Source: a virus
DNA: 64,000 bases
Virus record (IMG/VR): IMGVR_UViG_3300049893_000773
Span: 23,663 to 87,662 of that record
Strand: one strand, 5' to 3'
Part shown: one piece after another, positions 3,205 through 58,227 of the stretch
How the letters are laid out: every line of letters starts with the position of its first letter
Position numbering within the stretch: the first letter of the stretch is position 1
Translations under genes and position numbers: made by a program
The notes under the pieces: generated by a model
What the model was told of the DNA's origin: nothing
What the model saw: only the letters and a program-made list of their open reading frames with translations
The model's database searches: none

Positions 3205-3817
3205 GCTGCTTTTGCAAGAATTTGCCCAGTTCGACTACAAGAAACCAACCGACGAGGAAGGCAAGCCACGTCTTTCCAAGTACGGGAACATCCTTGTAAA
3301 GGGAGTCATTCAGCGTGCTGACGCCCTTAACCAGAATGGTAGGGTCTATCCAAGGCACATCCTTGAGAGGGAAGTTCGCAACTACATGACCCTGGTCAAG
3401 GAACGCAGGGCTACCGGAGAGCTCGACCACGCAGATTCTCCAACCGTCAACCTCCAGAACGCTTCCCACATTATCACGGATATTTGGTGGGAAGGCAATG
3501 ACCTCTGGGGTGAGATCGAGGTTCTTGAGGACCTTGATCAAGGAAGGAACCTCAAAGGACTCCTGAAGAACGATGTGAAGGTTGGAATCTCCTCCCGTGC
3601 TCTTGGAAGCGTGCAGAGGCTTGGGGAAACCAATGTGGTTCAAGAGGACCTTTACCTTGTGTGCTGGGACATTGTTTCCGAGCCGTCCACCCACGGTGCA
3701 TTCATGATGCAAGAAGCCAAGAGCTATTCCGACGAGGAAGTGCGTCGAATCATGAGCAAATCTGACCGTATTGACCGTGCCGCTAATGAAGTCCTGGCCC
3801 TGAAAGGAAGGCGCTGA
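3197..3817 (+). CDS. Prohead core protease (T4 gp21-like)
   Basis: NQNGRVYP, GELDH, SHII, VGISSRALGS and WDIVSEPSTHGA motifs; ATG at 3197 overlaps the upstream gene end. Confidence 0.93.
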   Translation: MSKLLLQEFAQFDYKKPTDEEGKPRLSKYGNILVKGVIQRADALNQNGRVYPRHILEREVRNYMTLVKERRATGELDHADSPTVNLQNASHIITDIWWEGNDLWGEIEVLEDLDQGRNLKGLLKNDVKVGISSRALGSVQRLGETNVVQEDLYLVCWDIVSEPSTHGAFMMQEAKSYSDEEVRRIMSKSDRIDRAANEVLALKGRR

Positions 3818-4236
3818 TGAAATTGACTCGTTCTGCGTTGAAATCAATCATTAAAGAATGTCTCCTTGAGTTGGCCGAAGAGGGTAAGTTGCAAATTGAG
3901 GGTATTAGCTCCCCAAATTTGAACGAAATCAAGAATCCGCAAGCAGGCAACTCCGACAATCTTGGAAATCCTCGCTTGCAGCAAGCAATTGACATGACGA
4001 CAAGGCTGCTCGCCAAGGGTGATCCCGGCAAAGCTGCCATGTACGAGTCCATCATTGCAGATACCGCTCGTACAACGCTTCAAAAGCAACTTGCGGCTAC
4101 ATCTTCTGGGGCTGGCACCTTGGTTGAGAGTGCCGTCTCCCCTGAAGAGCGTCAATATGACCAAGCACAACTTGGACAATTCGAGGCAAAGGACCGCTGG
4201 TCTATCCTGGCTTTTGCCAAGAAGCCGAAAAGCTAG
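3817..4236 (+). CDS. Putative internal head protein with N-terminal targeting-like tag
   Basis: Begins MKLTRSALKSIIKECLLELAEE; coupled to the protease gene by TGATG overlap. Confidence 0.65.
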   Translation: MKLTRSALKSIIKECLLELAEEGKLQIEGISSPNLNEIKNPQAGNSDNLGNPRLQQAIDMTTRLLAKGDPGKAAMYESIIADTARTTLQKQLAATSSGAGTLVESAVSPEERQYDQAQLGQFEAKDRWSILAFAKKPKS

Positions 4237-4270
4237 TAACGAGATAATTAGCTCCAAAGGGTAAGTCAAA

Positions 4271-4765
4271 ATGCCATCCCACCGTCAACTCATTACCGTC
4301 CCACAACCAAAAGCTGGTGGAGCCTCCACTGGACTCGGGACTTTTGCGCCAGGAAGTGCCGATTACGCTTCCCTCCGTTCGTCTTTCCCAGGCTCTCCAG
4401 CTTACGACGGCACCTATGCCGATGATGCGGTGGTGGCTAAGTACGAGGAAGTCAACACGTCTCCATTGAACGACGGTGGTCACACCTTTGGTTTGGTCAA
4501 GACCGACTTCTCGGATGCACCTGACCTTTCCACGGTCGCAACTGGTGGTGGTGGACTTCCTGGAACTCCATACGGTCCAAACCCATCGTCTCCTGGGCCA
4601 GGATTGAACCCAACGAACATCCCAGATCGTGATAGGGCATCCATCCGTACGGGTGGTGGCGGTTACGGTATCGGTGATGGTCTCGCTTCCCCATCGGCAA
4701 CGAGGGTAAACATCGCCCGCCAAAGAATCGGGAATCTGATTTTTGGCAAATCCACGCCTCGTTGA
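4271..4765 (+). CDS. Gly/Pro-rich putative virion protein
   Basis: 164-aa ORF within the head module, TAATTA at 4245 upstream. Confidence 0.6.
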   Translation: MPSHRQLITVPQPKAGGASTGLGTFAPGSADYASLRSSFPGSPAYDGTYADDAVVAKYEEVNTSPLNDGGHTFGLVKTDFSDAPDLSTVATGGGGLPGTPYGPNPSSPGPGLNPTNIPDRDRASIRTGGGGYGIGDGLASPSATRVNIARQRIGNLIFGKSTPR

Positions 4766-4789
4766 TTCTACCTACTCTGAGAGGTCCTA

Positions 4790-6868
4790 ATGTCGTCAAT
4801 TTTCGAAGAAGCGTTGCTTGAGGCAAAGAAACTGCGTCAAGTAGCTGAAGAGGATGCAAAAAACACCCTCATTCAAGAAATGACCCCTGTGATCCGCAAG
4901 ATGATCACGAACCAGCTTGCAGGCAAGTCCAGCGTTCTCTTCGAAGAGGAATTGCCTGCTGACCCAACAGCGTCCCCAGAAGCCCCTGTAGAGCCAGCAA
5001 TGGACCCTGCGGGCTCTGCCATGCCTGCGGCTGCACCTGTTCCTGTTGAGCCGCCTGCGAGCGGTGCTGCTGACGCACCTATTAAGGTGTCGGGCGCAGA
5101 AGTCATGAACATGCCAATGCCTGGACCAGATGGCAAGCTGGTAATTGACTTGGACGATCTTTTCGTTCCGGCAGAGCCAGGAGCGGAGACGCCTGATGAG
5201 GGTTCTGCTTCTGCCGAAGCTCCTCCAGCAATGCCCGGTGGGATGCCATCGCCAACTCCAGTGGATGTGAACCCAAGTGGTTCGGCACCAGAAGAAGCAC
5301 CAGCCCCAGAGGCTCCGGCTGCCCCTGTGGAGCCGGTTGCCACGGCAGGAGCCGAAGAGGTTCCGCCTCCCCCAGAGGAGCCAGCAATGGAGGAAACCTA
5401 CGAGCTTTTTGCCGAGGAGCTAAAGACCACGGCTGATCGCATTCACCAAGCCTATTCCTCCAAGGTTGGAGTTCCATCCCTTGTGAAGGAAGCTCTTCAG
5501 GAAAAACTCTATCAGCTTCTTGAATCCCTGGAATCGTTGAGCCGCAGAAACATGGTTTCTGAGCGTCTCACCCAAATCCAAGAGAGCCGTTTGGAGATTT
5601 TGCACCGCAAACTGAAAGAAGCAGTTGTCGCTAATACTTATCACAGAACAGAAGAAGGAACCGGAACTGACATGGCAAGCAAGTCGCTCAAGGAAATGGC
5701 TGCAAAGATGCTCGCAGAGAGCGCTTCGGTTGAGGGTGGTCCCGTCAAGTCTCCCGCTGATGTCCACAAGACAGAGGTGACGATGAAGGTTGACAACTCG
5801 CAGGAACAGGCTGCTGACAAGGCAGGAGCCCACGCTATGAAGGTTACGGAGCCTACTGTGACCCTCAAGACGGAATCGGCTGAAGCACAGGCTCAGGCTG
5901 CTCTTGCTGAGGAGCTTGCCGCTCTTGTTGCCGAGGGTTCTGGCGAGTCGCTTGCAGCCAAGGATGGGGAGCAGGATCTTGCTGGTGCTGCTTCGTCGAT
6001 TCCTGACAAGAAGGTTGGTCAAGTGGACCCAACGAAGAGCACGGCTGCAAGCAAGACCAATCCAGCTTCGCACGTTCAGGGTGTTGCAGAGTCGGTTGCT
6101 GTTTCGAGCAAGGCTCTTGCAGAGCAGACCAAGAAGATCAAGGCAGAAGCCTTGAAGAAGCAGATTGCCGCCCTTCAGGAGCAACTGAAGGAATGCGGGA
6201 TGCCAATGGAGGGCGATGCCCTTCCTGCGCCAGGAGCCCCAGCAATGGGTGTGATGGGCGAGGAAGATACGGTCATCAACTTCAACTTCGACCTCGCTGA
6301 TCTTCTGCCAGGACTTTCGGATCTTGGCGATGAAGACGAGATTGACATTGTGGGCGACGAGCCATCTGACGAGCCAAGCACCTTGGGCCCTGTGGGCGGT
6401 GCTGAACCAGAGGGTGACGACGCTGACGACCTTGAGCTTGCCGATGAGGACGAGCCAGAGGTTTCGCAACTTGCAGAGGGCAGGAAGTCCGGCAAGGGTG
6501 CGGGCAAGATTGTAGCGGAGAACAAGGATCTCCGTTCGCAACTTGCAACCGAGAAGCTGTTCAACGCAAAGATGGTTCATTTCCAGCCTTTCGTTAACAA
6601 TCCAAATCTGACCAAGCAACAGAAGCACAAAATTGCGGAGCACCTGGACAGAGGAACATCGCTTGAAGAAGTGAAGGCAATCTACAACCGCGTGAAGGTT
6701 GTGGTGGAGAACATGCAGAAGGTCTCTTCGAAGGCAGGAAGCTCTTCGAAGCCGGGTGTGACCCCTGCATCGACTCTCAGCGAGTCTGCCAACCCATACG
6801 AGGGATCGACCCTGGTGGAAGCAGAAAAGAATCGTTTGATGCAACTTGCTGGAATCAAGCGCAAGTGA
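4790..6868 (+). CDS. Prohead scaffold/core protein (gp22-like role)
   Basis: Acidic, Pro/Ala-rich, coiled-coil protein directly upstream of the MCP; many L/V-x-E sites; ends RLMQLAGIK. Confidence 0.75.
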   Translation: MSSIFEEALLEAKKLRQVAEEDAKNTLIQEMTPVIRKMITNQLAGKSSVLFEEELPADPTASPEAPVEPAMDPAGSAMPAAAPVPVEPPASGAADAPIKVSGAEVMNMPMPGPDGKLVIDLDDLFVPAEPGAETPDEGSASAEAPPAMPGGMPSPTPVDVNPSGSAPEEAPAPEAPAAPVEPVATAGAEEVPPPPEEPAMEETYELFAEELKTTADRIHQAYSSKVGVPSLVKEALQEKLYQLLESLESLSRRNMVSERLTQIQESRLEILHRKLKEAVVANTYHRTEEGTGTDMASKSLKEMAAKMLAESASVEGGPVKSPADVHKTEVTMKVDNSQEQAADKAGAHAMKVTEPTVTLKTESAEAQAQAALAEELAALVAEGSGESLAAKDGEQDLAGAASSIPDKKVGQVDPTKSTAASKTNPASHVQGVAESVAVSSKALAEQTKKIKAEALKKQIAALQEQLKECGMPMEGDALPAPGAPAMGVMGEEDTVINFNFDLADLLPGLSDLGDEDEIDIVGDEPSDEPSTLGPVGGAEPEGDDADDLELADEDEPEVSQLAEGRKSGKGAGKIVAENKDLRSQLATEKLFNAKMVHFQPFVNNPNLTKQQKHKIAEHLDRGTSLEEVKAIYNRVKVVVENMQKVSSKAGSSSKPGVTPASTLSESANPYEGSTLVEAEKNRLMQLAGIKRK

Positions 6869-6871: not shown

Positions 6872-6877
6872 TACTTA
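6872..6877 (+). promoter_or_regulatory. TANTTA putative late promoter (MCP copy; representative of ~20 copies)
   Basis: TACTTA upstream of MCP; the same hexamer precedes portal, neck, both sheaths, tube, tape measure and baseplate genes. Confidence 0.65.
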
Positions 6878-6903: not shown

Positions 6904-8817
6904 ATGAAAACTTTCTCTCTTTCGCAATTGGCAGAAGGCGTAAACCGCCGCTCGCTTGGTGCTGATGCGCCAAGGCTTCTGTCCAAGTGGTCTGCAACCG
7001 GACTTCTTGAGGGACTTGGTGGTATGCAGAAGGAGACGCTCTCGCGCCTTCTGGAGAACCAAGTGGCCCAGCTCATTCAGGAGTCCAACGCCATCTCGAC
7101 GGGTGGTGCATCTCTGACCTCCTCGGGTCAGATTGCAGGCTTCTCGAACGTTGCCTTCCCTATCGTTCGTAGGGTCTTCGCTGGCCTCGTTGCCAACGAA
7201 GTGGTTTCGGTTCAGCCAATGAGCCTTCCTTCGGGACTGCTCTTCTACTTGGATTACACCTACGGCTCGAACGTTGGTGGTGATGCAGGTCTGAGCCTCT
7301 CGACCTCGGCAACGGCTGACACCTACAAGAGGGCAACCTCGGTGTACGGTCTTCCAACTGGAGCCTCGATCCGTTCGGGTGCAACTCCTGCTGGTGGCCA
7401 GTACGACCTCGTGGGTCACGGCTTCTCCAAGGTTCACAAGGGTGCTCTGAACATCACTGGCTCTACGGACTCGGTGGGTTACTGGCTCTCGGGCTCGACC
7501 TGGACAACGGGCACCTCGGCTGTCGTGGCAGCTTCGGCTGACTGGACCGGCTACAACGCCCGCTACGCTGGGTTCCGCCAGGACATCCAGAATGGTCTTG
7601 ACAACGGCGACTTCGACTACTGCTTCATGTTCATCTCGGCCTCCGAGTTGGCAGGCAAGATTTCGGGTCTCGATCTGAACGCTCTTGACCAAATCTCGAT
7701 CACTGGTTTCGGTTCGGCAGCAAACTCTGTGACCGCTTGGGGCGACAGCTTCCAGGGTGGTCTTGGAGTCCTGAACCTCCGCGCTCTGAACAAGCGTGGT
7801 GACTGGAACGCAGCCGCAGGTACCTTCACCCCAAACCCACTCGGCGGAAGCCACGTGTTGTTTGTGCTGAAGATCGCCAACGCAGGCACGGCTCCACAGC
7901 CAACCGGCGTGGCTTCGACCTACATCTCTGGCTCGGCAGCAATTGCAGACGCTCTTTCGGTTGGTTCGGAGGGCACGACCCTTACGGTCCCATCGTTCGA
8001 AACGGACTTCGCAGTTGACTCCTCGCCAAGGATTCCAGAGGTTGACATCAAGATCGAGGGTGTCTCGGTCACTGCAACGACCCGCAAGCTCCGTGCTCGT
8101 TGGTCGCCAGAGATGGCACAGGACCTTACGGCCTTCTACTCCATCGACGTGGAAGTGGAACTCACAAATATCCTGTCCGAGATGATCACGCTCGACATCG
8201 ACCGCGAAATCTTGAACGATCTCCTCACACAGGCCACAGCAGCAAACCTGTTCTGGTCGCGTGCTCCAGGACGCATCGTCAACAAGACCACTGGTCAGGA
8301 AGCTCTCCACAACAACGTCTTGGCCCCAGGCCCACAGTTCTTCGGAAATGTGCGTGAGTGGTACGAGACGCTCATGGAGACGATCACGGATGCAGCCAAC
8401 ACGATTCACAGGAAGACCCTCCGTGGTTCGGGTAACTTCATCGTCACGTCGCCAGACGTGGCAACGATCTTCGAGCACCTTGTGGCCTACAAGCCAGCAT
8501 ACAAGGTTGACTCCGATGGTCAGGTGAAGGAGTCGATGACGATTGGCGCAGAGGCAATCGGCACGCTCAACAACCGCTACGTGGTCTACAAGGACCCTTA
8601 CTTCCCACAGAACAAGATTCTGATTGGTTTGAAGGGCAACACCTTCCTGGAGTCGGGATACATCTACGCTCCATACGTTCCACTCATCTTGACTCCTGTG
8701 ATCTACGCACAGGAGGACTTCACTCCTCGCAAGGGTGTGATGACCCGCTACGGTAAGAAGATGGTCCGTGCTGACTTCTACGCCACTGTGACCGTGCTCG
8801 ACATGGCCCTCATCTGA
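6904..8817 (+). CDS. Major capsid protein (T4 gp23-like) with large insertion
   Basis: FPIVRRVFAGLVANEVVSVQPMSLPSGLLFY, TRKLRARWSPEMAQDL, EMITLDIDREIL, GYIYAPYVPL and FTPRKGVMTRYG motifs. Confidence 0.96.
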   Translation: MKTFSLSQLAEGVNRRSLGADAPRLLSKWSATGLLEGLGGMQKETLSRLLENQVAQLIQESNAISTGGASLTSSGQIAGFSNVAFPIVRRVFAGLVANEVVSVQPMSLPSGLLFYLDYTYGSNVGGDAGLSLSTSATADTYKRATSVYGLPTGASIRSGATPAGGQYDLVGHGFSKVHKGALNITGSTDSVGYWLSGSTWTTGTSAVVAASADWTGYNARYAGFRQDIQNGLDNGDFDYCFMFISASELAGKISGLDLNALDQISITGFGSAANSVTAWGDSFQGGLGVLNLRALNKRGDWNAAAGTFTPNPLGGSHVLFVLKIANAGTAPQPTGVASTYISGSAAIADALSVGSEGTTLTVPSFETDFAVDSSPRIPEVDIKIEGVSVTATTRKLRARWSPEMAQDLTAFYSIDVEVELTNILSEMITLDIDREILNDLLTQATAANLFWSRAPGRIVNKTTGQEALHNNVLAPGPQFFGNVREWYETLMETITDAANTIHRKTLRGSGNFIVTSPDVATIFEHLVAYKPAYKVDSDGQVKESMTIGAEAIGTLNNRYVVYKDPYFPQNKILIGLKGNTFLESGYIYAPYVPLILTPVIYAQEDFTPRKGVMTRYGKKMVRADFYATVTVLDMALI

Positions 8818-8929: not shown

Positions 8930-9730
8930 ATGGAAAAGAGAGTTAAAGGCCCAGACGGAAGAGAATATTGCACCACTGCTTGTTGTGGAGGCCCACCAGC
9001 CAAGCAGCCCGACCCAGAGGGGACAACGCTCACCGTCCCCTCTGAATCGCTCGAAGATAAGCTTCCGCCTTTGTTGGATATTCAGCTCTTGAAAGCAAAG
9101 ATGTTGACCCCTGGCATCTTTGGGAGAAAAGATGCGTCCACAGTAGCGCCTATGCAGCGTTCGTTTTTCTGGTCAAGGAGACCGGGGAACTACGTGGATA
9201 GACTTACGGGACAGTCTGCCATGAAGAAGGTGGTCCAACGGGTAACCGTTTCCGAGATGGAAGTCCCAGGGTCTAATCCAAAGACCTTCGTCTTGGTCCA
9301 GCGAGAGGAGGAACGAGAGGTTCCAATCGACTCCTTTGAGGGAACAGTCAAGGATTGGTATGAGAAGCTGGGGGAGGAAGTCCTTCAGTGTGCCAACGAA
9401 ATTTTCCGCAAGTGCTTGGTGCCTGCCAATCTTGTTGAGATGTCCCCGGATCTCGTGAATCTATTCGAGGCCATTGGATTCGATCCCGGCAAATGGAGGC
9501 AGGTCGGTGCAAATGAGTTGCTTGCAACCAATAAGCTTTTTGGCAGGTATGCCGTTGTACGGTGTAACAACCTACCGGCAAACGAGTTGCACGTCAAGCT
9601 GATCTCGGAGATTTTCTACACTTTCGGCAATTTGACCGGCCCTGTCCCGGAAATCGACATGGAATTGCTCACCAAACCCGCGACGTTGGCTGATTACAAG
9701 GTCACTGTGTTGGACATGCCTCTCCTGTAG
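8930..9730 (+). CDS. Truncated MCP paralog 1 (A-domain-like part)
   Basis: EGTTLTVPS, FWSRRPG..V...TGQ, GTVKDWYE, ANEIFRK, SPD and VTVLDMPLL align with the C-terminal half of the MCP. Confidence 0.8.
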   Translation: MEKRVKGPDGREYCTTACCGGPPAKQPDPEGTTLTVPSESLEDKLPPLLDIQLLKAKMLTPGIFGRKDASTVAPMQRSFFWSRRPGNYVDRLTGQSAMKKVVQRVTVSEMEVPGSNPKTFVLVQREEEREVPIDSFEGTVKDWYEKLGEEVLQCANEIFRKCLVPANLVEMSPDLVNLFEAIGFDPGKWRQVGANELLATNKLFGRYAVVRCNNLPANELHVKLISEIFYTFGNLTGPVPEIDMELLTKPATLADYKVTVLDMPLL

Positions 9731-9762: not shown

Positions 9763-10416
9763 ATGACAATGACAGAGACGGTGAATACCCCATACAGGAC
9801 AGCTTCCGCGCTGCCCAACAACCAACAAACGGAGACCAATAAGCGGTTTTGGTCCCGTACCCCCGGCAGGTTCGTCAACAAGTGGACCGGGCAGGATAGC
9901 ATGGCAAACGCTGGACTGAGCAACGGTCCAATGTACGTTGGAAATGTCCGTGAGTGGTACGAGACGTTTGTGGAAACGATTCACGATGCTGCTGCGGTTA
10001 TCAAGAAGCGTTCTGGCCAGGACCCCAACATCCTTGAGGTCTCCCCCGACATCTTGACCATTCTTGAGTGCACCGTGTCGTATAGATCAGTCTATTACGC
10101 AAATGAGGACCAGCCAAGGGTCACCATGAAGGGTGCAATTGGAGGGCTTGTTGGGCAAGTGGCTGGCAGGTACCATGTGCACGTCAACCCCGACTTCCCT
10201 GCGGATACAGCGAAGCTCGTGCTCGTGACCGACCAGAGAGTTTTGACGGAGACCGTGAAGGCACAGCCGCTTCAGGCCATGATTGATGGGAAGCCGGTGC
10301 CAAGCTACGTGGAAGATGAGTGGACCACAACTCAGGTTCGCAAGACTGAACCGCTTCCTTCCATCACCCGCCTTGATGGTATGACGATCAAGGTTCTCGA
10401 CATGAATATTCTGTGA
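9763..10416 (+). CDS. Truncated MCP paralog 2 (A-domain-like part)
   Basis: FWSRTPGRFVNKWTGQ, GNVREWYETFVETIHDAA, SPDI, GRYHVHVNPDFP and IKVLDMNIL align with the MCP. Confidence 0.85.
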   Translation: MTMTETVNTPYRTASALPNNQQTETNKRFWSRTPGRFVNKWTGQDSMANAGLSNGPMYVGNVREWYETFVETIHDAAAVIKKRSGQDPNILEVSPDILTILECTVSYRSVYYANEDQPRVTMKGAIGGLVGQVAGRYHVHVNPDFPADTAKLVLVTDQRVLTETVKAQPLQAMIDGKPVPSYVEDEWTTTQVRKTEPLPSITRLDGMTIKVLDMNIL

Positions 10417-10453: not shown

Positions 10454-11521
10454 ATGGACCTTCGTTTCCGAGAAGAATGCTACGGCCACAGTGGTGGTCA
10501 AACCGATTGCTCTCTATACGCCCTTCTAGGCGACGAAGTGATCGGGAAGGTAGATATCGCCTACCACCGAAATGGTGGCCGTAGAGAGGCGTATATCAAG
10601 ATGATCGAAGTGCAGCCTAATTTCCAGGGGAAAGGGGTTGGCAAGGCTTTGATCTATAAGTTGGCCAGTCAAATCCCTTACGAGGCGATTGATTGGGGGA
10701 TGACCACGCCTGAAGGTGGGGCATTGAAGCAGGCAATGGACCGGGAGTTTGGAACATCCTACGTTCCACCTGAGCCCGAGCCAGACATGGATGACCCCAA
10801 GTACGCTGACGACCTCAGTGGCGAAAGGTATTTTGCCGACCTAAAGGTTTGGCGGCAAAAGCAAGGGTACGTGGATGAGGCTAATTACCACGGAAAGGGA
10901 ATGGAAAGAATGAAAGTCAAGGACCTCAAGAAGCTGGTTGCCGAGAGTGTAGCCGCTGCTGTGAAAGAAGCCGGATATGACCAGTACGGGGAGGGTGTGT
11001 CGCAACCTACGGAGCCAAGCTGGTTCGACACGCTGATGGCCCCTGATGAGCCTGCACCTGAACTCAAGGGCACGCCAGAAGCCAGGAAGCTGGTTGATGC
11101 GGCCAAATTGATGTTGAAGAAGGCTGGTCCAAAGATTGACAAGGAAGTCATGAGCCAAGTCTCTGCTGAGTTGGAGCACAACTTCAACCTCCCAGACGGG
11201 GTAAGCTGGGAAGTGGTCCATGCTGCCTTTGAGGAGCTCAAGAGTGACATGCTTTCCGAGGCTCCACCAGAGGGATGGCACGGGACTGTGCGGGCCATGA
11301 AGACCCATGGACACACTGGCAAGGGTGGGGAGATCGACAACCCATACGCCTTGGCACACTACATGGCAAACAAGGGGGATGAGCCTCACTACAAGGAGCA
11401 GCCAACCTCCAAGAAGGGTACTCCTGTGAAGAAGAAGGAGTACATGAAGACGGAAGCCTTCGTTGATTTGGTCCGTCAGATGATCCGCGAGGAGATCCTG
11501 AATCTCCGCAAGGGGAAGTGA
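10454..11521 (+). CDS. GNAT-like acetyltransferase domain fused to a tagged internal-protein module
   Basis: IEVQPNFQGKGVGKALI acetyl-CoA motif A; internal MKVKDLKKLVAESVAAAVKE tag at 10910. Confidence 0.7.
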   Translation: MDLRFREECYGHSGGQTDCSLYALLGDEVIGKVDIAYHRNGGRREAYIKMIEVQPNFQGKGVGKALIYKLASQIPYEAIDWGMTTPEGGALKQAMDREFGTSYVPPEPEPDMDDPKYADDLSGERYFADLKVWRQKQGYVDEANYHGKGMERMKVKDLKKLVAESVAAAVKEAGYDQYGEGVSQPTEPSWFDTLMAPDEPAPELKGTPEARKLVDAAKLMLKKAGPKIDKEVMSQVSAELEHNFNLPDGVSWEVVHAAFEELKSDMLSEAPPEGWHGTVRAMKTHGHTGKGGEIDNPYALAHYMANKGDEPHYKEQPTSKKGTPVKKKEYMKTEAFVDLVRQMIREEILNLRKGK

Positions 11522-11523
11522 CC

Positions 11524-11898
11524 ATGGCAAAGCAGATCATGAGCATTGAAGCGTTCGAGCAGTTGGTGCGGGAGTACATTCAGGAAGCTGTACGAGAGGA
11601 GATGCTCAAGGATCTTGCCAGGGTGCAGGAAGGTACTGCTGGAACACTCTCCACGACCTCTTCTACCTCGACCACTGGGACTTCTGGGACAACTGCGACG
11701 ACTGGTACCAAGTCGAGCATTGGTTCCAATCCTGGCAATGCCGACCCGGCAAACAACGTAATGGTCCCAGGGACAAACATGAACATCAATCAAGGTCTTC
11801 AGGCTGCTGCGAAGGAAACCAACTTCAAGAAGAAGGCCGAACTTGTAAACAAGATGTCCACCCAAATTCAGGGAATGAAGGGCCTCGTTATCAAATAA
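11524..11898 (+). CDS. Thr/Ser-rich putative internal head protein
   Basis: FEQLVREYIQEAVREE tag followed by a low-complexity T/S tract. Confidence 0.6.
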   Translation: MAKQIMSIEAFEQLVREYIQEAVREEMLKDLARVQEGTAGTLSTTSSTSTTGTSGTTATTGTKSSIGSNPGNADPANNVMVPGTNMNINQGLQAAAKETNFKKKAELVNKMSTQIQGMKGLVIK

Positions 11899-13195: not shown

Positions 13196-13268
13196 GGGCT
13201 GCAAAACATCCCCTCTGAACTGTTTGGAATCAAGGTGAAGCGAATGATCAGAAATTTCGGAGGCTTGA

Positions 13269-13931
13269 ATGGCACGGCTGTTTATCACACAACGAGAGAT
13301 CGACTATTTTAACGATATTGCCAAGGAAGTCATCAAGGACATCATTGGGCAGGCGATCATCTATTGGCCGGTGTCTACCCTGAAGACCAAGGTTCACCCC
13401 GTCTACAATGAGGCTGTGAAGAAAAACTTCGAGAACCCGATCAAGGTTGATGCCTTGGTTGGTCAGCCTCAATGGGAGACGAAGATGACGCAATTTGGAC
13501 CTGAGCAGCAAAACACCTTGGAGGTCTTCCTCCAGGCAAGGGATTTGGCTCAGAAGGGTCTAGAGATTGCGGAGGGTGACTTTTTCACCTATGGTGACAA
13601 CGCCTACGAAATCGTATCCAGCGTCAACATGAATAACTACTTTGGTCAGGTGGAGCACGATGTGGCTTTCAAGGTGATTGGAAAGCTGGCACGTCCTGGG
13701 GAGTTCAACCCGCAGAAGTTCTTCAAGCCTGACGCTGAGACGATCATTCCTACTCCAACCCCTTTCGAGCAACAGAGGGGTATTTCTGAAAACACGGAAG
13801 GGCCAACAGGAGATATTCGTGACGTTAAGGAACGTCTTGGCGACGACCTTCCAGCACCCGCACTTGGAGAAGGGCCAAGGCGAGTGGATGTTGATTCGAC
13901 CCTGAGAGCAAATAAGCTGTACGATGAATGA
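13269..13931 (+). CDS. Neck / head closure protein (gp14-like)
   Basis: IIYWPV, VYNEAVKKNF and EGDFFTYGDNAYEI; synteny. Confidence 0.6.
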   Translation: MARLFITQREIDYFNDIAKEVIKDIIGQAIIYWPVSTLKTKVHPVYNEAVKKNFENPIKVDALVGQPQWETKMTQFGPEQQNTLEVFLQARDLAQKGLEIAEGDFFTYGDNAYEIVSSVNMNNYFGQVEHDVAFKVIGKLARPGEFNPQKFFKPDAETIIPTPTPFEQQRGISENTEGPTGDIRDVKERLGDDLPAPALGEGPRRVDVDSTLRANKLYDE

Positions 13932-14622
13932 ACTAAAAGCCGCCTTTCAGTTTTGGCTCCTTGAGAGTAATGACCTTGAGGAAGCCAAGTTCAATCCCGA
14001 CGTTTTGGACAAAATGGACGGGCCTGAGTCCATGCTTTCAGCCGCTCGGGACAGACTTCCAGCACTTGGAGAGGGTTCATCTCGTGCTGCCTTTTTGCTG
14101 GACAGCAAGAGGGTGCTCAAGGTTGCCATCAACAACAAGGGGTTGGCCCAGAACAAGGCCGAGTATGAGCTTTCACAGCATCCTGGGGTGGCTCCTTTGG
14201 TGACAAGGATCTTCCGGGTTGGCAAGGACTACTCGTGGCTCGTTTCCGAACTTGTTCGTCCGCTCAGGACCAACAAGGAGTTTGAGCAGCTTACTCAAGT
14301 GCCTTGGAGCTTCTTCATCTCCTTCCTGAGTTTTTACGAGGGCAATGGAGACATTGGAAAATCCTTCAATCTCGCCGTGAAGTCTCAAATTGATCAGGAC
14401 AGGCGCAAGAAGAGCCCCTTCCCAGGCATCTCTGTGAGAGGGATCGAGCACCTTCCATTCATTGGGCGGTTCATGACCGCTCTTGGGAACCGCCCCGATT
14501 TGATTCCAGCAGACCTGATGAAGCTGGATCACTGGGGGAAGACACCGGATCAGCGTGTGGTCCTGTTGGATTCTGGCTATACCGAAGAAGTGTGGTCCTC
14601 GCACTATTCGGATGAGTCATAA
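13924..14622 (+). CDS. Protein-kinase-like fold protein, paralog A
   Basis: LGEGSSRAAF, VLKVA, QNKAE, DLMKLDHWG and VVLLDSG motifs. Confidence 0.65.
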   Translation: MNELKAAFQFWLLESNDLEEAKFNPDVLDKMDGPESMLSAARDRLPALGEGSSRAAFLLDSKRVLKVAINNKGLAQNKAEYELSQHPGVAPLVTRIFRVGKDYSWLVSELVRPLRTNKEFEQLTQVPWSFFISFLSFYEGNGDIGKSFNLAVKSQIDQDRRKKSPFPGISVRGIEHLPFIGRFMTALGNRPDLIPADLMKLDHWGKTPDQRVVLLDSGYTEEVWSSHYSDES

Positions 14623-22068: not shown

Positions 22069-22857
22069 ATGAGCAAAGTAAAGGAAAGTAGGTTGCCTGT
22101 TCAGTTTATCAAGCCCGGTGACATTCGGGCCATGGTAAATTGGCTTGAGCTTCCCCAGAACCATGATGCGGCAGTCAATGCAATCGCAGTGGTTCCTGAT
22201 TCGCGACGCGATTCTGCCTTCGTGGATTTCTTGGCTTCTTCCCCAGCATTTCAGGGGTGGGAATACAATCAAATTGCCCACGCAGTAGATCAAGCCAATG
22301 AAATGGATCTAATGGAGACGAAAATGAAACAGAGCGAACTGAAGAAGATGGTATCGGAAGCCGTAAAGGGCGGAATCCGCAAGGCAATGCAAGAGAACAA
22401 GAGCAAGCCAAAGGCACGGATCACCAAGACCGCTCTGGCTGAGGCTGTCCGCAAGGCAGTTCGTGCTTCTCTTCAGGAGATGGGCATGCCAGGGGCCGCA
22501 ATGCCTCCAGCGGGCAAGCCAGCCGGTGCAGCAATGACTGCTCCAACCCAGGAGGGTGTTTCGGACGGTGATCCAAAGAGAGGAAGTTCCACCTTTGGTC
22601 AGCTTCCTTCTCCAGAGGAGCTTCAAATGGCCATTGACGAGCTTGGTGGCTGGTCGATGACCCTTCGCGGCTCGGATGCTCGTTCTTTCGATGCAGCAAT
22701 GGCTCAAGCGGGCATGGACTCGGGCGAAGCAGAGATGATGATGGATACCGGAGAGGGTATGCACAAGGTCATTTCCGCTCTCATGGATTCTGGCGATGAG
22801 AATGCTGAGAGCCTTGCCTCTGGCATCATGGACGTTCTTGGCTGGGAGTGGATCTGA
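22069..22857 (+). CDS. Putative internal head protein with tandem tags
   Basis: MKQSELKKMVSEAVKGGIRKAMQE and ITKTALAEAVRKAVRASLQE. Confidence 0.65.
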   Translation: MSKVKESRLPVQFIKPGDIRAMVNWLELPQNHDAAVNAIAVVPDSRRDSAFVDFLASSPAFQGWEYNQIAHAVDQANEMDLMETKMKQSELKKMVSEAVKGGIRKAMQENKSKPKARITKTALAEAVRKAVRASLQEMGMPGAAMPPAGKPAGAAMTAPTQEGVSDGDPKRGSSTFGQLPSPEELQMAIDELGGWSMTLRGSDARSFDAAMAQAGMDSGEAEMMMDTGEGMHKVISALMDSGDENAESLASGIMDVLGWEWI

Positions 22858-23147
22858 TGAAGGTCAAAGACCTGAAAGCAATGATCCAAGAAGCCGTGCA
22901 GAAGGCTTTGAAGGAAGAGATGGATCGTCCGGTAGACGCCTCCGACCTGGATGACGCTACTCAGCTTTTGATGTTGATTTCCGGTCGAATCATGTCTGCT
23001 CACGGCAAAGATGTGCCTGCCAAGGCAATTCAGGCTGCAATTCACCACATCGAACAGGCCGATGGAATTCTCGCAGCAGCCGGTTTGAAAGCAGACGAAG
23101 CTGATGTGCGCGGAATTGCTGAGTCAAAGGGCCAGCAAAAAAGATAA
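22857..23147 (+). CDS. Small tagged putative internal head protein
   Basis: Starts MKVKDLKAMIQEAVQKALKEE; TGATG coupling. Confidence 0.65.
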   Translation: MKVKDLKAMIQEAVQKALKEEMDRPVDASDLDDATQLLMLISGRIMSAHGKDVPAKAIQAAIHHIEQADGILAAAGLKADEADVRGIAESKGQQKR

Positions 23148-26381: not shown

Positions 26382-27089
26382 ATGGCATCATCTCCCCTTC
26401 ACGAATACATCAAGGCGGCTATTGAGCTCTATCTTCTTGAAGACTTCGATGCCTCAACGAAGCCTGTAAGAAAGCCAGGAACCACTGCACCTCCCGCCCA
26501 ACAGCAGACCTTCAACTTCAACGAGTTTCGTGCTCTGAAGGACCTGGATTCCGTTCTTGAGTATGTCAAGAAGACCTTGGGACGTTCTCTCCTTGGAGAG
26601 GGACAAGGACGGCTTGTCTACAGCCTTGGCAATGGCCGGGTGTTGAAGGTTGCCAAGGATCAAGGGGGAGTTGGCCAGAACCAGAGCGAGGCGAATGTGT
26701 GCGCCAGTTCGGCTGATGTTGTGACCTTGTTCCCCAAGGTTTTCGAGAGCAGCCCTTCGCACTTTTGGCTTGTCACGGAAGAAGCCAAGCCAATGACCGA
26801 GGAAGCCTTCAAGACCCTGACAGGACTTCCCTGGAGGATGTTCTGGTCCGCTCTCAAGGGAGCCTTTGCTGGGAAAGCCTCGAATGTCACCCAAGCAGAC
26901 CAACAGAACTACGCCCAGGCTTCGGCAAATCAGTTTTTCGCCAGAGTCGTCAAGGCAATTCGAGATTGCAGGTATGAGCCGGGTGATATTGCCAAGCTGG
27001 ATTCCTGGGGAATTGTTGGAGGCAAGCCTGTAATCATCGACTCCGGGTTTACGGAAGCTGTGAACAAGGCTTACTATTCCAACGGCTAG
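26382..27089 (+). CDS. Protein-kinase-like fold protein, paralog B
   Basis: LGEGQGRLVY, VLKVA, QNQSE, DIAKLDSWG and VIIDSGF motifs; TATTTA at 26364 and GAGGA SD. Confidence 0.65.
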   Translation: MASSPLHEYIKAAIELYLLEDFDASTKPVRKPGTTAPPAQQQTFNFNEFRALKDLDSVLEYVKKTLGRSLLGEGQGRLVYSLGNGRVLKVAKDQGGVGQNQSEANVCASSADVVTLFPKVFESSPSHFWLVTEEAKPMTEEAFKTLTGLPWRMFWSALKGAFAGKASNVTQADQQNYAQASANQFFARVVKAIRDCRYEPGDIAKLDSWGIVGGKPVIIDSGFTEAVNKAYYSNG

Positions 27090-29100: not shown

Positions 29101-29781
29101 CTACTGAACCTTGCCGGAACGAACAGCGTTGGCAACCTTCTGAACGAAGCCGCCGAGTGACTGGTTGAAGGCTGCAAGCATGTTCAGGTCTTGCTTGCGC
29201 TGCATTGCCTTGACGAGAGCCTTGAGGGATTCCAAAAGTTGGTCGGCCTCCTTCACAGCTTGATCAAGCTTGACGGAATTCCTGATTTCAATGTCGCCAC
29301 GGTCATATTCCTTCAATGCCTTGGCAACGCTTTCCTGGATGAGTTTGACGAGATCGGACTTCTTCATTTTTTGCTCCTGCATTCCTTTGTAAACTAGGTG
29401 CCATGTCGGGACTTTCAGTCCAAAGCCACTGGCAACATTCACTCTTCCCCTGCCATCCCCAATTTGAGTCATTTCTGGCGTTGTGATGACCACAATTGGA
29501 GGGATCTTGCCTGCTTTGAGCCACTTAGCAGCCATCACACCCCATTTGGGCCCACGAAACTGACCAAGCTCCGCAACCTTCTCCTCGTCGGACATTCCCT
29601 GGAAGGTGTCGGGGCGCAAGTCAAGCCAAGCATCCACGTCGTCGTACTGGCGAAGGTCATCAACTGAGAGGTCTCCCAGGAATTCCAAGTTGAAGTCTTC
29701 CAGCGACAACGGCTCATTGCTGAAATCCGATGCGTGGTCAATGGCATCAAGAAGGTCTTTCTGGGAGGGCTTCTCGTCCAT
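29101..29781 (-). CDS. ParB/Srx-like domain plus C-terminal tagged module
   Basis: IPPIVV...IGDGRGRV; MKKSDLVKLIQESVAKALKE. Confidence 0.55.
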   Translation of the reverse strand: MDEKPSQKDLLDAIDHASDFSNEPLSLEDFNLEFLGDLSVDDLRQYDDVDAWLDLRPDTFQGMSDEEKVAELGQFRGPKWGVMAAKWLKAGKIPPIVVITTPEMTQIGDGRGRVNVASGFGLKVPTWHLVYKGMQEQKMKKSDLVKLIQESVAKALKEYDRGDIEIRNSVKLDQAVKEADQLLESLKALVKAMQRKQDLNMLAAFNQSLGGFVQKVANAVRSGKVQ

Positions 29782-46865: not shown

Positions 46866-47738
46866 TCAAAAGGGGATGTCGTCCTCGTCTGAGGCTGGGG
46901 GCCTTGCTGGGGGACGAGGGGCTGTAGCTGGCTTTCGTGGTGGAGGGGGAATCACGTTGCCGTACTTGTCGTATTCCACCTCTTGCTCATGACCGTAGTC
47001 GTCCCTGTACGATCTTTCCAGGTCATTGACTTGCTGGTAGATGGACGGGTTGTACATGCTGTAGGCATCGCTCCCGAAGCCGTAGTCAATGACGACCACC
47101 CTACCATCTGGCAAGACTCCGAGTTGGTCAGCACTTGCTAGATCCAGGCCATTGCTTTCCAGGTGAGGGATGGCGAGGCAAATCTTTGCGAAGGAATCGG
47201 TGAAGTTGAGGGCTTGCTCGTATCTCTTGATTTGGGACAAGTTTCGCTCGGAGGGGTTCAGGGCTTTGAAGTAGCTGATTTGCTTCTGGATCGAGGACTT
47301 CAGGTCCTCGATGGTTTTTGATCGAAAGCAAGCGCCACTGAAAAGCTCGTGAGCCGTTTTGGCATCGACTCCAAAGAGCCTTTCAAGCTCCTCTGCTCCT
47401 TTGAGGGATTCAGCTTTCTCGGCCACGATCCATTCAAAGTGCTCATCATGCGGCTCATCAATTGCCGCCAGGACTAGCTTTACATCCCCTGGGACCTTGT
47501 GATAGAGTTGGTACTCGGTTTCGTTCTGGACGGAACCCTTGTCGCTCATGGCTACCTTGAGCACACGTCCATCACCAAGGTCGAAGACAGCCCGTGAACT
47601 ACCACTGCCAAGCTCAACCAGAGTTTGCTCCACATACTCCAAACGTTGTGGTCGGCCAACGTACTTCTTCAATTCATCGAAAGAGAAGGACTCTTCGGCC
47701 TCTTGGAGGAAATCCAGGAATTCCTTTAGTGTGTGCAT
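46866..47738 (-). CDS. Protein-kinase-like fold protein, paralog C
   Basis: MHTLKEFLDFLQE tag; LGSGSSRAVF, VLKVA, QNETE, DLASADQLG and VVIDYG motifs; TATTTA 5 nt before ATG. Confidence 0.65.
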   Translation of the reverse strand: MHTLKEFLDFLQEAEESFSFDELKKYVGRPQRLEYVEQTLVELGSGSSRAVFDLGDGRVLKVAMSDKGSVQNETEYQLYHKVPGDVKLVLAAIDEPHDEHFEWIVAEKAESLKGAEELERLFGVDAKTAHELFSGACFRSKTIEDLKSSIQKQISYFKALNPSERNLSQIKRYEQALNFTDSFAKICLAIPHLESNGLDLASADQLGVLPDGRVVVIDYGFGSDAYSMYNPSIYQQVNDLERSYRDDYGHEQEVEYDKYGNVIPPPPRKPATAPRPPARPPASDEDDIPF

Positions 47739-55854: not shown

Positions 55855-55857
55855 GAA

Positions 55858-56073
55858 ATGTACTATTTGGTATACTTGGCCTACGAGAGAGATGGCGGCG
55901 GACTTGTCACGCAAGAGGACCTGAAGCGCTATTCCAGGATTTTCTCCGATGAATGGCGTGCGGAGGAATACAGGGCAGAGCTTGATGCAACGGAGGGCGC
56001 TGGTTGGATGCGGGCAAGAGTGCTTGCCTGTGGCGAGAATGGGTGCGAGGAACCATCACTGGAGGAGCCATAG
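55858..56073 (+). CDS. Hypothetical protein
   Basis: AGGAG SD; tightly packed. Confidence 0.55.
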   Translation: MYYLVYLAYERDGGGLVTQEDLKRYSRIFSDEWRAEEYRAELDATEGAGWMRARVLACGENGCEEPSLEEP

Positions 56074-56078
56074 AACCG

Positions 56079-56348
56079 ATGGGATACTACTACTACGGAA
56101 AGAGCAACAAGCGAGTTGAGTTCGAGGACAGCAAGCCCCCAAAGCACCAAGGTGGAGTTGTCATCTTGCGGGATGGGGCTCCTCGGAGCATTTTCAACGA
56201 ACTTGGAATCAAGATCACCGGCTACTACGACTGGGCTGACATGTACCACGTGGATGCCAGCATTGAGCAATTGAACCAATTGTTTGAAACCGGGATGGCA
56301 AAGTGCGCCGAGCCTGCCTTGGTCGAAAACATCGGACCAAGGAGGTAA
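56079..56348 (+). CDS. Hypothetical protein
   Basis: GGAGGAG upstream; ATG at 56079 MGYYYYGK. Confidence 0.55.
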   Translation: MGYYYYGKSNKRVEFEDSKPPKHQGGVVILRDGAPRSIFNELGIKITGYYDWADMYHVDASIEQLNQLFETGMAKCAEPALVENIGPRR

Positions 56349-56364
56349 TCCCATATTTAGGTGG

Positions 56365-58227
56365 GTGAAGACCTACCTCAGATTTGGCGAAATTCCAAAA
56401 AGTGGCAAATCAGGCATTGGGGATGCCTGGAGACGCCAAGCTGCCCTCTACGGGGAGATTGTTCCGACCGAGGAACAAGGTGTTTCTGTGTATGATGCCA
56501 CCCTCGTTGACATCAAAGGGGTCAAGAAGTGGCGTCCTACGGTCAATGAGTTCCAAACCTTCATGGGGGTCTATGGGGACGCCTGCAAGGGAGCCAGGAC
56601 CATTTACTTGATCACCGGGGAAGAACTGCCGGAAGGTGGTTCCGACGGGGAGCCTTTGCTCAAGGCAGATACCATCAAGGTCCTGAAGAAGCTGAGCTTC
56701 AAGGACATTTACCACAAAGAGATCGACCCAGGGCTCTATGATGATGACTGGTGTCAAGACGGCTTGAAGAGAGAGAAAGAGCTTGGGATCATGGAAAAAG
56801 CGGCCCTGAAGGAGTTTCTGGAAGCAGCAGCCCTTGATGAACTTTCAAAGATCACAGAACCCAAGAGAAGCGGGCTCCCTGTTGATCAACTCGGATTGAA
56901 GCCTGGGGGAGGTGTTCACAACATCGTGACCGTCTACAACCAAGCAACTCCCGAGGAAAAGGAATATTGGGGAAGGTGGTATCACAACGCCAAGTCCGAT
57001 GTCGAGGACCTTGCTGCAACCTACAACCTTCCATTCCCTGTAGCAGCAGCCGTTGTTGCTGTCCTATCTCCAGGAAACAAGTGGGCTCTGAACCTCTTGG
57101 CTGCGGAGAAGGTCCTGAAGGGCGCAGAGAAGATCAACGCCTATCCACGTCAGGTTGCAAGGGCCAAGGAGATCATTCGAACAGGGAACACCAATCTCGT
57201 AACCGGCCCAAAGGTCACCGTCTTCTTCAAGTCCCTGATGGACCCTTCTTCTGTTGAGAAGGACATGGTTCTTGACGGCCATGCCATCAATATTTGGCGT
57301 GGAGCAAAAGAAGCCCTCAAAGGCTTGAAGTCCCCAAGCACCAAGGAACGGGCCCAGATGATCCAGGACTACCAAGAGGCCGCAAAGCAGCTTGGAGTCC
57401 CTGTCCAAGCTGTTCAAGCTACAACTTGGTACATTTGGAAGTACACAGGAAAGACCGCCCCTCTCCCAGTGGAGAAGGGTGTCTACGACGTGTCCAAGTT
57501 CACTGGAGCCAAGCCAGCAAACGACGTAGACGCCATCATGGAGGAGTTCCTGGACGAGTTCAATGCAATGGGCACAGGAGCCGTTCAAGGCTACACAGGG
57601 CCCCTTGGAGCCGATCCTGAGCCTACCCACAAGAAGATGTGGAGCGACCCAAAGAACGAGGGGAAGGGCCCAAAGATGGAATACAACCCAATGCCTTCCG
57701 AGCTTTGGGAGATTGAATGGCCTGGATCAGAGAATCGTCCGCCTGACTACTACCCGCCTACAAGTGAGAACGGCTATTACTATGGAGTGCTCAAAGGCGG
57801 GAAAGGAAAGAAGTCGGAGTTCTCGGTGAATCTAGAAGATGTAGCTGGGCAGCACGATGCGACCACTACAGCCTTGGTTCGTTGCCGAAGCACTGATTTT
57901 GAAAAAGGCAAGGTGGACGCCAAAGTTTTTGAAGCCTGGAACGACAAAGAAGGGCTGTGGATGCCTGTTTCTGAAATGGTAATTCAAGAGAACGTCCTGG
58001 ATCAGATGGGACAGAAGCACGTCGGGGGAGCTTCCAGGAAGAGCCCTTACGGGGACACCTATGTCGGGTTCTCCTCTGGGAAGAATGAAGACGAATCAGG
58101 GCGGGACAAGCAGAGCAAGATCGTCCAGAAGGTCAACAAGAACCTCGACAAGAAGCCGTACAGCCTTCATGATCCTCCAGGAATGGGTATCTCGATTACC
58201 CGTCCTTCCCTCAAGGACAGAAAGTAG
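56365..58227 (+). CDS. Multi-module putative internal head polyprotein with an HhH/glycosylase-like domain
   Basis: GTG start MKTYLRF 5 nt after TATTTA; internal MEKAALKEFLEAAALDE tag; WY..LSP..W..N..GPKV..F..DGH..QA.TW domain. Confidence 0.6.
   Translation: MKTYLRFGEIPKSGKSGIGDAWRRQAALYGEIVPTEEQGVSVYDATLVDIKGVKKWRPTVNEFQTFMGVYGDACKGARTIYLITGEELPEGGSDGEPLLKADTIKVLKKLSFKDIYHKEIDPGLYDDDWCQDGLKREKELGIMEKAALKEFLEAAALDELSKITEPKRSGLPVDQLGLKPGGGVHNIVTVYNQATPEEKEYWGRWYHNAKSDVEDLAATYNLPFPVAAAVVAVLSPGNKWALNLLAAEKVLKGAEKINAYPRQVARAKEIIRTGNTNLVTGPKVTVFFKSLMDPSSVEKDMVLDGHAINIWRGAKEALKGLKSPSTKERAQMIQDYQEAAKQLGVPVQAVQATTWYIWKYTGKTAPLPVEKGVYDVSKFTGAKPANDVDAIMEEFLDEFNAMGTGAVQGYTGPLGADPEPTHKKMWSDPKNEGKGPKMEYNPMPSELWEIEWPGSENRPPDYYPPTSENGYYYGVLKGGKGKKSEFSVNLEDVAGQHDATTTALVRCRSTDFEKGKVDAKVFEAWNDKEGLWMPVSEMVIQENVLDQMGQKHVGGASRKSPYGDTYVGFSSGKNEDESGRDKQSKIVQKVNKNLDKKPYSLHDPPGMGISITRPSLKDRK

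Follow-up and report, generated by a model that had tools for sequence, protein, structure and literature searches.

What a short amphipathic peptide is doing on several unrelated proteins of one virus is the question raised by this locus. The DNA analyzed here, called the window throughout, is a stretch of 64,000 nt (positions 23,663 to 87,662) of IMG/VR record IMGVR_UViG_3300049893_000773; it forms the final 64 kb of a viral contig of 87,662 bp and has a GC content of about 53%. An earlier note had pointed to a dispersed tag of about 20 amino acids (aa) on unrelated open reading frames (ORFs) and had proposed that it loads a panel of enzymes into the phage head. The motif, MK..[D/E/Q]LK.ΦΦ.E[A/S/C]V (Φ, hydrophobic), spans about 14-24 aa and was found in five ORFs of the window and in one ORF upstream in the same contig. 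From its sequence and its likeness to prohead-protease sites, it is probably this clade's counterpart of the capsid-targeting sequence (CTS) of phage T4, by which protein cargo would be loaded and the leader then cut off.

Detection and spread of the tag

The core pattern matched six times in a six-frame translation of the contig, always in called coding frames: at window positions 3817, 10910, 22324, 22857 and 29367 (-), and at contig position 1214 (-), outside the window. When leave-one-out hidden Markov models (HMMs) were searched against 1,930 six-frame peptides, the copies were recovered with E values of 3.6e-7 (22857), 2.9e-6 (10910), 8e-6 (29367), 2.5e-3 (22324) and 0.016 (contig 1214); the best non-family matches had E values of 0.14-1.9 and the best reversed-sequence matches 0.11-2.3. 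The copy at 3817 was missed by its leave-one-out model (E 21) and was found by the clade-wide profile with E 9e-8, the best match of that profile in its own genome. The peptides quoted in the earlier note were present wherever it had placed them, and its close copies stood up to both the pattern and the HMMs, except for the one at 11524 (E 0.14-1, like the controls). The analysis thus confirms the close family but not the extended list.

By capsid protein, the closest cultured phages were Flavobacterium phage immuto (46% identity), Microcystis phage Mel-JY01 and Rhodothermus phage RM378, and a major capsid protein (MCP) search of IMG/VR returned more than 700 related contigs, the largest of 320 kb. 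Searching 160 related loci with a seed profile gave 58 matches with E<1, as against none in the reversed sequences. A profile scan over the genome and its relatives, as the earlier note had proposed, bore the family out: after four iterations over the contig and the 160 related loci (2.25 Mb), the clade profile gave 119 matches with E<1e-3 and 171 with E<1, and again none in reversed sequences. Whole contigs carried 20 copies (318 kb, 93% complete), 25 (273 kb), 6 (320 kb), 14 (102 kb) and 4 (189 kb). Consecutive tagged genes formed arrays of up to 11, beside the tube gene, in the relatives L107, L121 and L112. Among the cultured phages, immuto has one protein that opens with the tag, immuto35A_190 (E 1.4e-6), and another, immuto35A_198, that begins in a similar way; Mel-JY01 gave one weak match.

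Anatomy of the tag and its carriers

Positions within ORFs were counted over 133 copies with E<0.01, and residues over 124 distinct tags. The clade consensus was MKITKRQLKRIIKEAVRELLSEGI; the window mostly carried a form two residues shorter, MKVKDLKAMIQEAV. Conservation among the 124 tags was high at L8 (113), K/R9 (118), I/L/M11 (119), I/V12 (118), K/R13 (100) and E14 (116, with Asp once). The residue after this Glu, position 15, was C in 40 tags, E in 34 and A in 32, and the 40 Cys cases came mostly from one orthologue group. A start codon opened 130 of the 133 copies (118 ATG, 10 GTG and 2 TTG), leaving three without one. The tag was the first start of its ORF in 84 cases; an upstream start lay at most 20 aa away in 34 and 21-50 aa away in 7, and five copies were internal by more than 50 aa. 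The N-terminal, internal and C-terminal placements first described hold within the window, but across the clade the tag is an N-terminal leader, with 118 of 133 copies at the ORF start or no more than 20 aa from it.

The median distance from tag to stop was 117 aa. The regions behind the tag in 132 ORFs fell into 68 BLAST clusters, 49 of them singletons, in keeping with a portable tag on unrelated proteins; the largest cluster, with 40 members, consisted of orthologues of the gene at 3817. Domain searches named very little. A Pfam scan of 87 tagged ORFs (82 from relatives and 5 from the window, with duplicates left out and 2 of 39 orthologues of the 3817 gene kept) gave one family above the cut-off, the GNAT of the window, and one PepSY match below it. 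A relaxed Pfam search on 6 ORFs gave nothing credible, and the only matches to PHROGs among 21 window ORFs were phrog_4301 (kinase-like), phrog_3842 and an adaptor-like one. The notion of an enzyme panel as the cargo does not carry over to the clade, where the tag is a portable N-terminal leader on unrelated, mostly small ORFan proteins.

Likeness of the tag to prohead-protease sites

The window encodes a prohead protease of the T4 gp21 type at 3182..3817 (+) (Peptidase_S77, PF03420, E 2.2e-26) and a gp23-type MCP at 6904..8817 (+) (PF07068, E 3.9e-75). The N-terminal region of the MCP aligned with the propeptide of T4 gp23. In an alignment with T4 gp23 and gp24, its L-I-Q-E60↓S (the arrow marks the cut) fell on LTE↓A of gp23 and LRE↓S of gp24, which we take to be the maturation cuts of the two T4 proteins; the alignment itself gives the register only. 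The maturation cut of the window MCP is predicted after E60, codon 7081-7083. Across 68 clade MCPs the predicted site read (L/V/M/I)(L/I)(R/K)E(A/S/T), with E60 in 68 of 68, and this is the pattern of tag positions 11-15. T4 annotations and a review (PMC9026906) have both gp23 and gp24 cleaved by gp21, the exact site being left unstated there.

The strict form of the site, [LIVM][LIV][KRQ]E[ASTC], occurred seven times in 26,679 aa of called ORFs: at the MCP site, in a scaffold-like protein, in the gene before the protease, in three tags and in 23707-24615 (-). Six of the seven were in head-module or tagged ORFs. None was in a replication enzyme of this genome; frequent matches of the tag in such enzymes had been named in the earlier note as a sign against packaging. 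The S77 protease itself has retained an N-terminal LLxE, with L10 and L11 at least 90% conserved in an alignment of 38 orthologues, and the N-terminus of T4 gp21 likewise has LLIE.

The internal proteins (IPs) IPII and IPIII of T4 start with MKTYQEFIAE↓A, and the leader of IPI has 19 residues ending in ITE↓A; these cut positions are taken in part from a review. The review PMC9026906 describes IP leaders, 10-19 residues long, as directing proteins to the core, and places cleavage by gp21 after L/I-x-E. For the CTS of IPIII it assigns targeting to residues 4 and 7 and processing to residues 8 and 10, the latter function being blocked by Asp at position 10. The removal of the CTS of IPI, IPII and IPIII by gp21 goes back to Mullaney & Black 1996, as reported in PMC9026906 and PMC3012670, and the T4 precedent given in the earlier note (IPs, CTS and gp21) agrees with what the first of these states. 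Tag residues L8, Φ11, Φ12 and E14 are spaced i, i+3, i+4 and i+6, which is the spacing of positions 4, 7, 8 and 10 in the IPIII CTS (Y4, F7, I8 and E10). The likely cut is at the invariant Glu in mid-tag (position 12-14) and not only at the terminal (L/V/M)-x-E where it had been placed before.

A T4-like course of events can be proposed from these likenesses. The tag would form a short amphipathic N-terminal helix, and its hydrophobic face (L8, Φ11, Φ12) would dock the protein on the scaffolding core while the prohead is built. The S77 protease would later remove the leader at the invariant Glu (ΦΦ-K/R-E, followed by A/S/C). The carriers, mostly small and fast-evolving ORFans numbering about 20-25 per near-complete genome, would thus be enclosed in the capsid; the mature proteins would remain in the head and could exit with the DNA. 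Where the tag is internal, the same cut would free an N-terminal enzyme or domain (GNAT, ParB/Srx-like or an 85-aa domain) from the carrier module within the head.

Packaged cargo, assembly parts or an unrelated helix

The tagged gene at 3817..4236 (+) encodes a 139-aa protein with its tag at 3817-3888 and lies directly 3' of the protease gene. Its family is a conserved head-module gene in which an alignment showed three islands: the tag, DP.M..IFADTA.TTL and W..LAF. This gene is the best conserved of the tagged genes, and it sits between the protease gene and the scaffold gene, the position of core genes in T4. On that ground the tagged proteins could be parts for prohead assembly (core or scaffold proteins, like T4 gp67, gp68 and gp22) that are chopped and expelled before the DNA, with nothing delivered. 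T4 core proteins also open with ΦΦxE stretches (MLKEQLIAE in gp22 and MEGLIE in gp67), several tags carry two or three ΦxE sites, which fits assembly parts, and core fragments are mostly expelled according to the review (PMC9026906). We nevertheless regard this explanation as unlikely. So many unrelated clusters and singletons, at 20-25 copies per genome in hypervariable arrays, fit cargo in an arms race better than assembly parts, and the fusions with GNAT, kinase-like and ParB/Srx-like domains, together with a link to ART-PolyVal, point to enzymes that act on targets.

Several points weigh against a counterpart of the T4 CTS as such. Docking, cleavage, packaging, ejection and internal initiation are all inferred from sequence and the T4 precedent, and a proteomics paper on immuto was not found in the literature. 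The ΦΦxE core is low in information, and the seven strict sites compare with 2.9 ± 1.7 in shuffled sequences (maximum 10), a modest enrichment. At position 15, 74 of the 124 tags have Cys or Glu, unlike the MCP site with its A/S/T. The tag profile gave no match with E<=1 in the T4 genome and none in RM378; because it finds nothing in T4, the link between the tag and the T4 CTS rests on format and spacing. Many tagged genes of the large relatives lie far from structural modules, and the tag helix was modelled with a low predicted local distance difference test (pLDDT) score of about 55. A salt bridge within an oligomer could also account for an acidic residue that stays invariant in a basic amphipathic helix.

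The tag might, then, be an N-terminal helix unrelated to the capsid, spread by recombination and serving as an oligomerisation, nucleic-acid-binding, membrane-surface or translation-start leader. It is after all a generic basic amphipathic helix beginning MK, and the distance of many copies from structural genes, the missing homology to the T4 CTS, the cargo without known families and the low-confidence helix model would all suit such a helix. It would leave unexplained the near-absolute Glu flanked by ΦΦ(K/R), as in the clade MCP site, the presence of a conserved tagged gene next to that of the protease, and the near confinement of the strict pattern to head-module and tagged ORFs. Conservation at the protein level also reaches residue 14-22, far past the context of a start codon. 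We consider a capsid-unrelated role quite improbable and continue with a head-targeting leader as the preferred reading.

Internal tags at fusion joints

Three tags of the window lie within longer ORFs. The first of these ORFs, 10454..11521 (+), encodes 355 aa and combines a GNAT domain (aa 17-71), an internal tag (10910-10981, aa 153) and a C-terminal module, here C'. The GNAT matched PF00583 with 31.8 bits against a cut-off of 20.7, the domain being matched only in part (aa 17-71). The C' module with the tag at residue 1 and without a GNAT was found in the orthologue of the closest relative, L001, and in seven database homologues (examples are P0023, P0031, P0033-36 and P0038). In L001 a separate kinase-like gene precedes this counterpart of the C-terminal part, whose tag is at Met1. 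The same module stood behind one GNAT in P0022, P0025 and P0027 (by eye) and behind two GNATs in P0030. P0029 had the order GNAT, GNAT, tag and zinc ribbon (HMM E 0.005), and P0028 had GNAT, GNAT, a tag-like stretch and a kinase-like domain, an assignment made by eye, as the tag HMM was not passed at E<0.1.

The 355-aa ORF also ends in a tag-like extension of 25 aa (11444-11518, +) that has a Met start and reads MKTEAFVDLVRQMIREE... It resembles the N-terminus of the next ORF, 11518-11898, and was present in the closest database homologues (P0022-P0024) and absent in more distant ones. This element may be what is left of a tag, or a second copy of one, that became fused to the gene's end.

The second internal tag is in a 262-aa ORF at 22069..22857 (+), between the second sheath gene and the tube gene. 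Its tag stands at aa 86 (22324-22395), and a second copy, reported earlier and present here in weaker form, follows at 22414-22479. Positional counterparts in more distant relatives have the tag at their start, in two copies; the 85-aa N-terminal extension was found in L081 and L082 as well. The gene that follows, at 22857..23147 (+), encodes a 96-aa protein with an N-terminal tag (22857-22928) and likewise has orthologues in L081 and L082.

The third is in a 226-aa ORF at 29101..29781 (-), which comprises an N-terminal domain with a GDGRGR motif (aa 1-135), the tag (29296-29367, minus strand, starting at 29367, aa 139) and a helical C-module. The tag was modelled as a helix over residues 141-166, and the N-domain was modelled with pLDDT 85-94. 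No Pfam match to this domain was found, and its fold matches were weak: the best Foldseek E value was 0.042, and the best VIA Z score was 5.0 (6ky4, root-mean-square deviation 4.2 Å over 79 aa). VIA rows 1-29 were all ParB, Srx, Noc, KorB, SerK, SbnI or Osa, and the residues G108, G112 and R113 of GDGRGR were invariant in 20 sequences. The fold matches lend weak but consistent support to a ParB/Srx-like domain. In the L082 orthologue (P0013), the tag and C-module were retained (64% identity over 109 aa), with a GNAT replacing the ParB/Srx-like domain. Elsewhere the GDGRGR domain occurred alone, in P0005 as ParB/Srx-like, GNAT, tag and module, and in P0018 behind ART-PolyVal, a domain of proteins predicted to be injected with phage DNA (PMC5512222).

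Comparison with relatives, which have other N-terminal enzymes at these places, shows that the three internal tags of the window lie at fusion joints. Wherever the window has an enzyme there, it is N-terminal to an internal tag and not behind one. A single GNAT hopping between carriers was considered and rejected: the GNATs of 10454 and of L082 had no detectable relation and so look like independent fusions.

The tagged module may also be made alone. When the seed profile was applied to 45 database homologues, a tag was found in 26 (11 at residue 1 and 15 internal), with Met at position 1 in every one. Of the N-terminal tags, 88 of 118 had a Shine-Dalgarno-like 4-mer in front, as did 4 of 5 internal tags; for background in-frame ATGs the figure was 111 of 410. 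The ATGs of the internal tags in the window were preceded by GGAG-like stretches, and TAATTA was found 13 nt 5' of ATG 10901 (MERMKVKDL), three codons before the tag ATG at 10910. The retained Met and the Shine-Dalgarno-like stretch suggest an internal start for the tagged module.

Taken further, the tag would be a universal joint for docking and cutting. Enzymes (GNAT, kinase-like, ParB/Srx-like and ART) would ride ahead of tagged carriers and be freed by the head protease, the carrier would be made alone as well from the internal start, and recombination at the tag would reshuffle both between loci and phages; with the 20-25 or so N-terminally tagged ORFans per genome, this would equip the clade with an arsenal of effectors in the capsid that is far larger and more combinatorial than T4's. 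We put this forward tentatively and with some doubt. A further opposing point is that only 5 of 133 tags in the clade are internal, so that the idea of enzyme release rests on few gene families.

Kinase-like paralogues and other looser copies

Beyond the close family, the earlier note had listed looser copies of the tag, among them the N-termini of three kinase-like paralogues of phrog_4301, which are candidate carriers only. The first, at 13924..14622 (+), has an N-terminal helix ending in LLE↓S. The second (E 5e-11) is at 26382..27089 (+), with its start reset to ATG 26382, 12 nt 3' of a TATTTA. The third (E 2.4e-14), at 46866..47738 (-), is in the replication region, and its start at 47738 is 5 nt 3' of a TATTTA. 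A model of the first had a pLDDT of 88, with the first 20 aa forming a separate helix (pLDDT about 54). Foldseek against the PDB returned 28 matches with E<=1e-3, all kinase-like (APH(2''), MTR kinase, LIMK1, PknB and PRPK). In 14 sequences G49, G51, K66, E80 and D216 were invariant, and D197 was conserved in at least 90%. As modelled and aligned, the three proteins have a bilobal protein-kinase-like fold with the expected Gly-rich loop, β3 Lys, αC Glu and catalytic and DFG-like Asp residues. Among the domains said to be attached to tags, the kinase-like one was thus upheld by Foldseek and the GNAT by Pfam, and the ParB-like one weakly by Foldseek and VIA.

In L001, a kinase-like gene (12801-13484) occupies the position of the window's GNAT, and another (17184-17693) follows the 13269-type gene. 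As this gene order indicates, the family of small kinases moves about within the head and neck region.

The tag HMM found no match on 13924..14622. With the seed, leave-one-out and clade profiles, none of the positions 11524, ~11460, 24668, 13924, 26382, 47738 and 56791 scored above the reversed controls; 11524 had E 0.14-1, and the rest were not listed or had E>90. Half of the copies listed earlier are therefore not detectable members of the family. The borderline case is a 126-aa ORF at 11518..11898 (+) with a tag-like N-terminal helix (N-terminal region ..EAFEQLVREYIQEAVREE); the noted position 11524 is the start of the ORF, and the motif-like stretch begins about 36 nt further on. It was the best non-family match of the leave-one-out searches and did no better than the reversed controls. 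Its orthologue at 14340 of L001 retains MIREAIKEE.

The looser copies are rather likely to be something other than tag copies, either chance amphipathic helices rich in Glu and Leu or, in the kinase-like trio, inheritance among paralogues. Their scores were no better than those of reversed sequences with any of the three profiles, and the trio are full-length paralogues. Some observations pull the other way. The kinase-like domain of P0028 stands directly behind its tag-like stretch (seen by eye, the HMM failing at E<0.1), and its ..GGFDL..FKQL matches the N-terminus of the L001 kinase-like protein, which suggests that the N-terminal helices of the kinases may be diverged tags. TANTTA was found 5-12 nt before the starts of 26382, 47738 and 24668, as it is with many structural genes, and the element at 11444-11518 has a Met start and is similar to the N-terminal end of the gene that follows.

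The TANTTA element

TANTTA had been described as standing upstream of most tag carriers. The motif is real and rare: the two strands of the 87.7-kb contig together have 43 copies of TA(A/T/G/C)TTA. The motif was found no more than 80 nt upstream of 20 of 87 called genes, including those for MCP, sheath and tube, and this rules it out as a signal specific to the tag. Many starts had it 5-35 nt before them, including those of MCP, sheath 2, tube and several large structural ORFs. Examples are at 6872, 10443, 10882, 11917, 14620, 19029, 23153, 24656, 26364, 30107, 34963 and 53894 on the plus strand, and at 47749, 29015 and 30112 on the minus strand. In relatives, 17 of 132 tagged starts had a TANTTA within 40 nt, vs about 2% expected. 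Judged by its placement, it is probably a promoter-type element and possibly a late one.

Genome context

A T4-type portal (Portal_T4, E 9e-63) is encoded at 127-2238, ahead of the protease. The ORF at 4790..6868 (+), before the MCP gene, encodes an acidic scaffold-like protein of 692 aa, named for position and composition, in which the strict site motif (LVKE↓A) occurs at residue 231. Pfam and PHROGs gave no family match for it, and it is a candidate scaffold by inference. Further tail genes in the window are two sheath paralogues of about 1,000 aa, a gp19 tube protein and a baseplate protein. The sheath paralogues are adjacent (15944-18994 and 19063-22062, +), with Pfam matches limited to the C-terminal sheath domains. 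Nucleotide and replication enzymes in the window comprise TK, NUDIX, RecA, dUTPase, FEN, a DnaB-like helicase, RNR, an SNF2 helicase, ThyA and DHFR. When the nucleotide sequence of the head region was searched against cultured phages, just a 6% match to one uncultured record came up.

The capsid gene is followed directly by two short ORFs, 8930-9730 and 9763-10416 (+), that are paralogous to the C-terminal region of the MCP. Both share WSR.PGR..N..TG and a terminal ..V(L)DM..(L/I) with it, and 9763-10416 additionally has the VREWYET stretch of the MCP; a vertex or decoration role is conceivable for the two. The propeptide and N-arm of the MCP recur in a small ORF at 59634-60008 (+), which aligns with MCP residues 26-91 (pairwise E 6e-8), has Gln in place of the Glu of the predicted cut site, and is possibly a second way into the prohead. 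The nearby ORF 60699-61118 had a faint resemblance to the MCP only. A DUF7178 protein (phrog_3842) at 56284-58227 (+) is encoded amid the replication genes of the window; the genes for its homologues in L017, L003, L006, L092 and L002 are no more than 10 kb from a capsid or tube gene, and these homologues have an amphipathic start, ..LL..LL.EQ.

Comparison with known systems

The tag shares with the T4 CTS a short MK leader on unrelated small proteins, a gp21-type protease and a Φ-x-E end like the MCP site. It differs in being 2-4 residues longer, with a helix that often extends to residue 20-24 and has more ΦxE sites, in its numbers (about 20-25 tagged genes per near-complete genome, in arrays, against three IPs and Alt in T4) and in its additional internal use at domain joints. 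T4 Alt is an enzyme carried in the head and freed from propeptides at both ends by the head protease (PMC9026906, PMC5512222). The proteins described here similarly combine GNAT, kinase-like or ParB/Srx-like domains with tags, and in one ORF tag-like elements stand internally as well as at the C-terminal end. Unlike Alt, the window has no ART domain, the sole ART link being the database homologue P0018, and its enzymes are N-terminal to the tag. T4 gene 21 likewise has an in-frame internal start that gives a shorter annotated product (T4 annotation; PMC9026906), whereas the internal start at the tag is a candidate suggested by the retained Met (15 of 15) and purine-rich stretches upstream.

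In the giant phages φKZ, 201φ2-1 and SPN3US, many head-internal proteins are cut after Glu by a gp21-related protease, and the conserved N-termini of paralogues are thought to target the prohead (PMC5694885). Those propeptides, in the same source, are 80-130 aa long with S/A/G-x-E (PMC5694885), against 14-24 aa and Φ-x-E for the tag. Polyvalent proteins (Iyer et al. 2017, PMC5512222), encoded near virion genes, join disparate domains (ParB-like, ART and GNAT-linked) and are predicted to be injected with DNA and sometimes processed; the window's ParB/Srx-like domain is likewise joined to ART-PolyVal in P0018. The window proteins differ in being small (226 and 355 aa), with one recognisable enzyme domain each plus helical modules, and in a proposed release by the head protease at a shared tag and not by a built-in MPTase peptidase domain. 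Database relatives do combine domains: ParB/Srx-like with GNAT (P0005), ART-PolyVal with ParB/Srx-like (P0018), and two GNATs with a kinase-like domain (P0028).

Head-targeting leaders, the long propeptides of giant phages and injected polyvalent proteins are thus known. The tag family was not found described in the literature on CTS, prohead-protease cleavage, immuto, and polyvalent or packaged anti-defence proteins, with subscription journals and supplements outside the scope. Relative to that literature, the leader itself, its spread through the clade, the size of the repertoire and its internal use as a joint with swapped passengers are new.

Should the tag function as the T4 CTS does, each capsid of a large, widespread and mostly uncultured aquatic clade of T4-like phages, with cultured Flavobacterium phages among its members, would be loaded with dozens of fast-evolving proteins that act at the onset of infection. 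The leader would then be a simple sequence rule for picking out ORFans that are candidates for injected anti-defence or take-over proteins, a ready packaging signal for the engineering of non-coli phages, and a natural case of enzyme passengers released by a protease.

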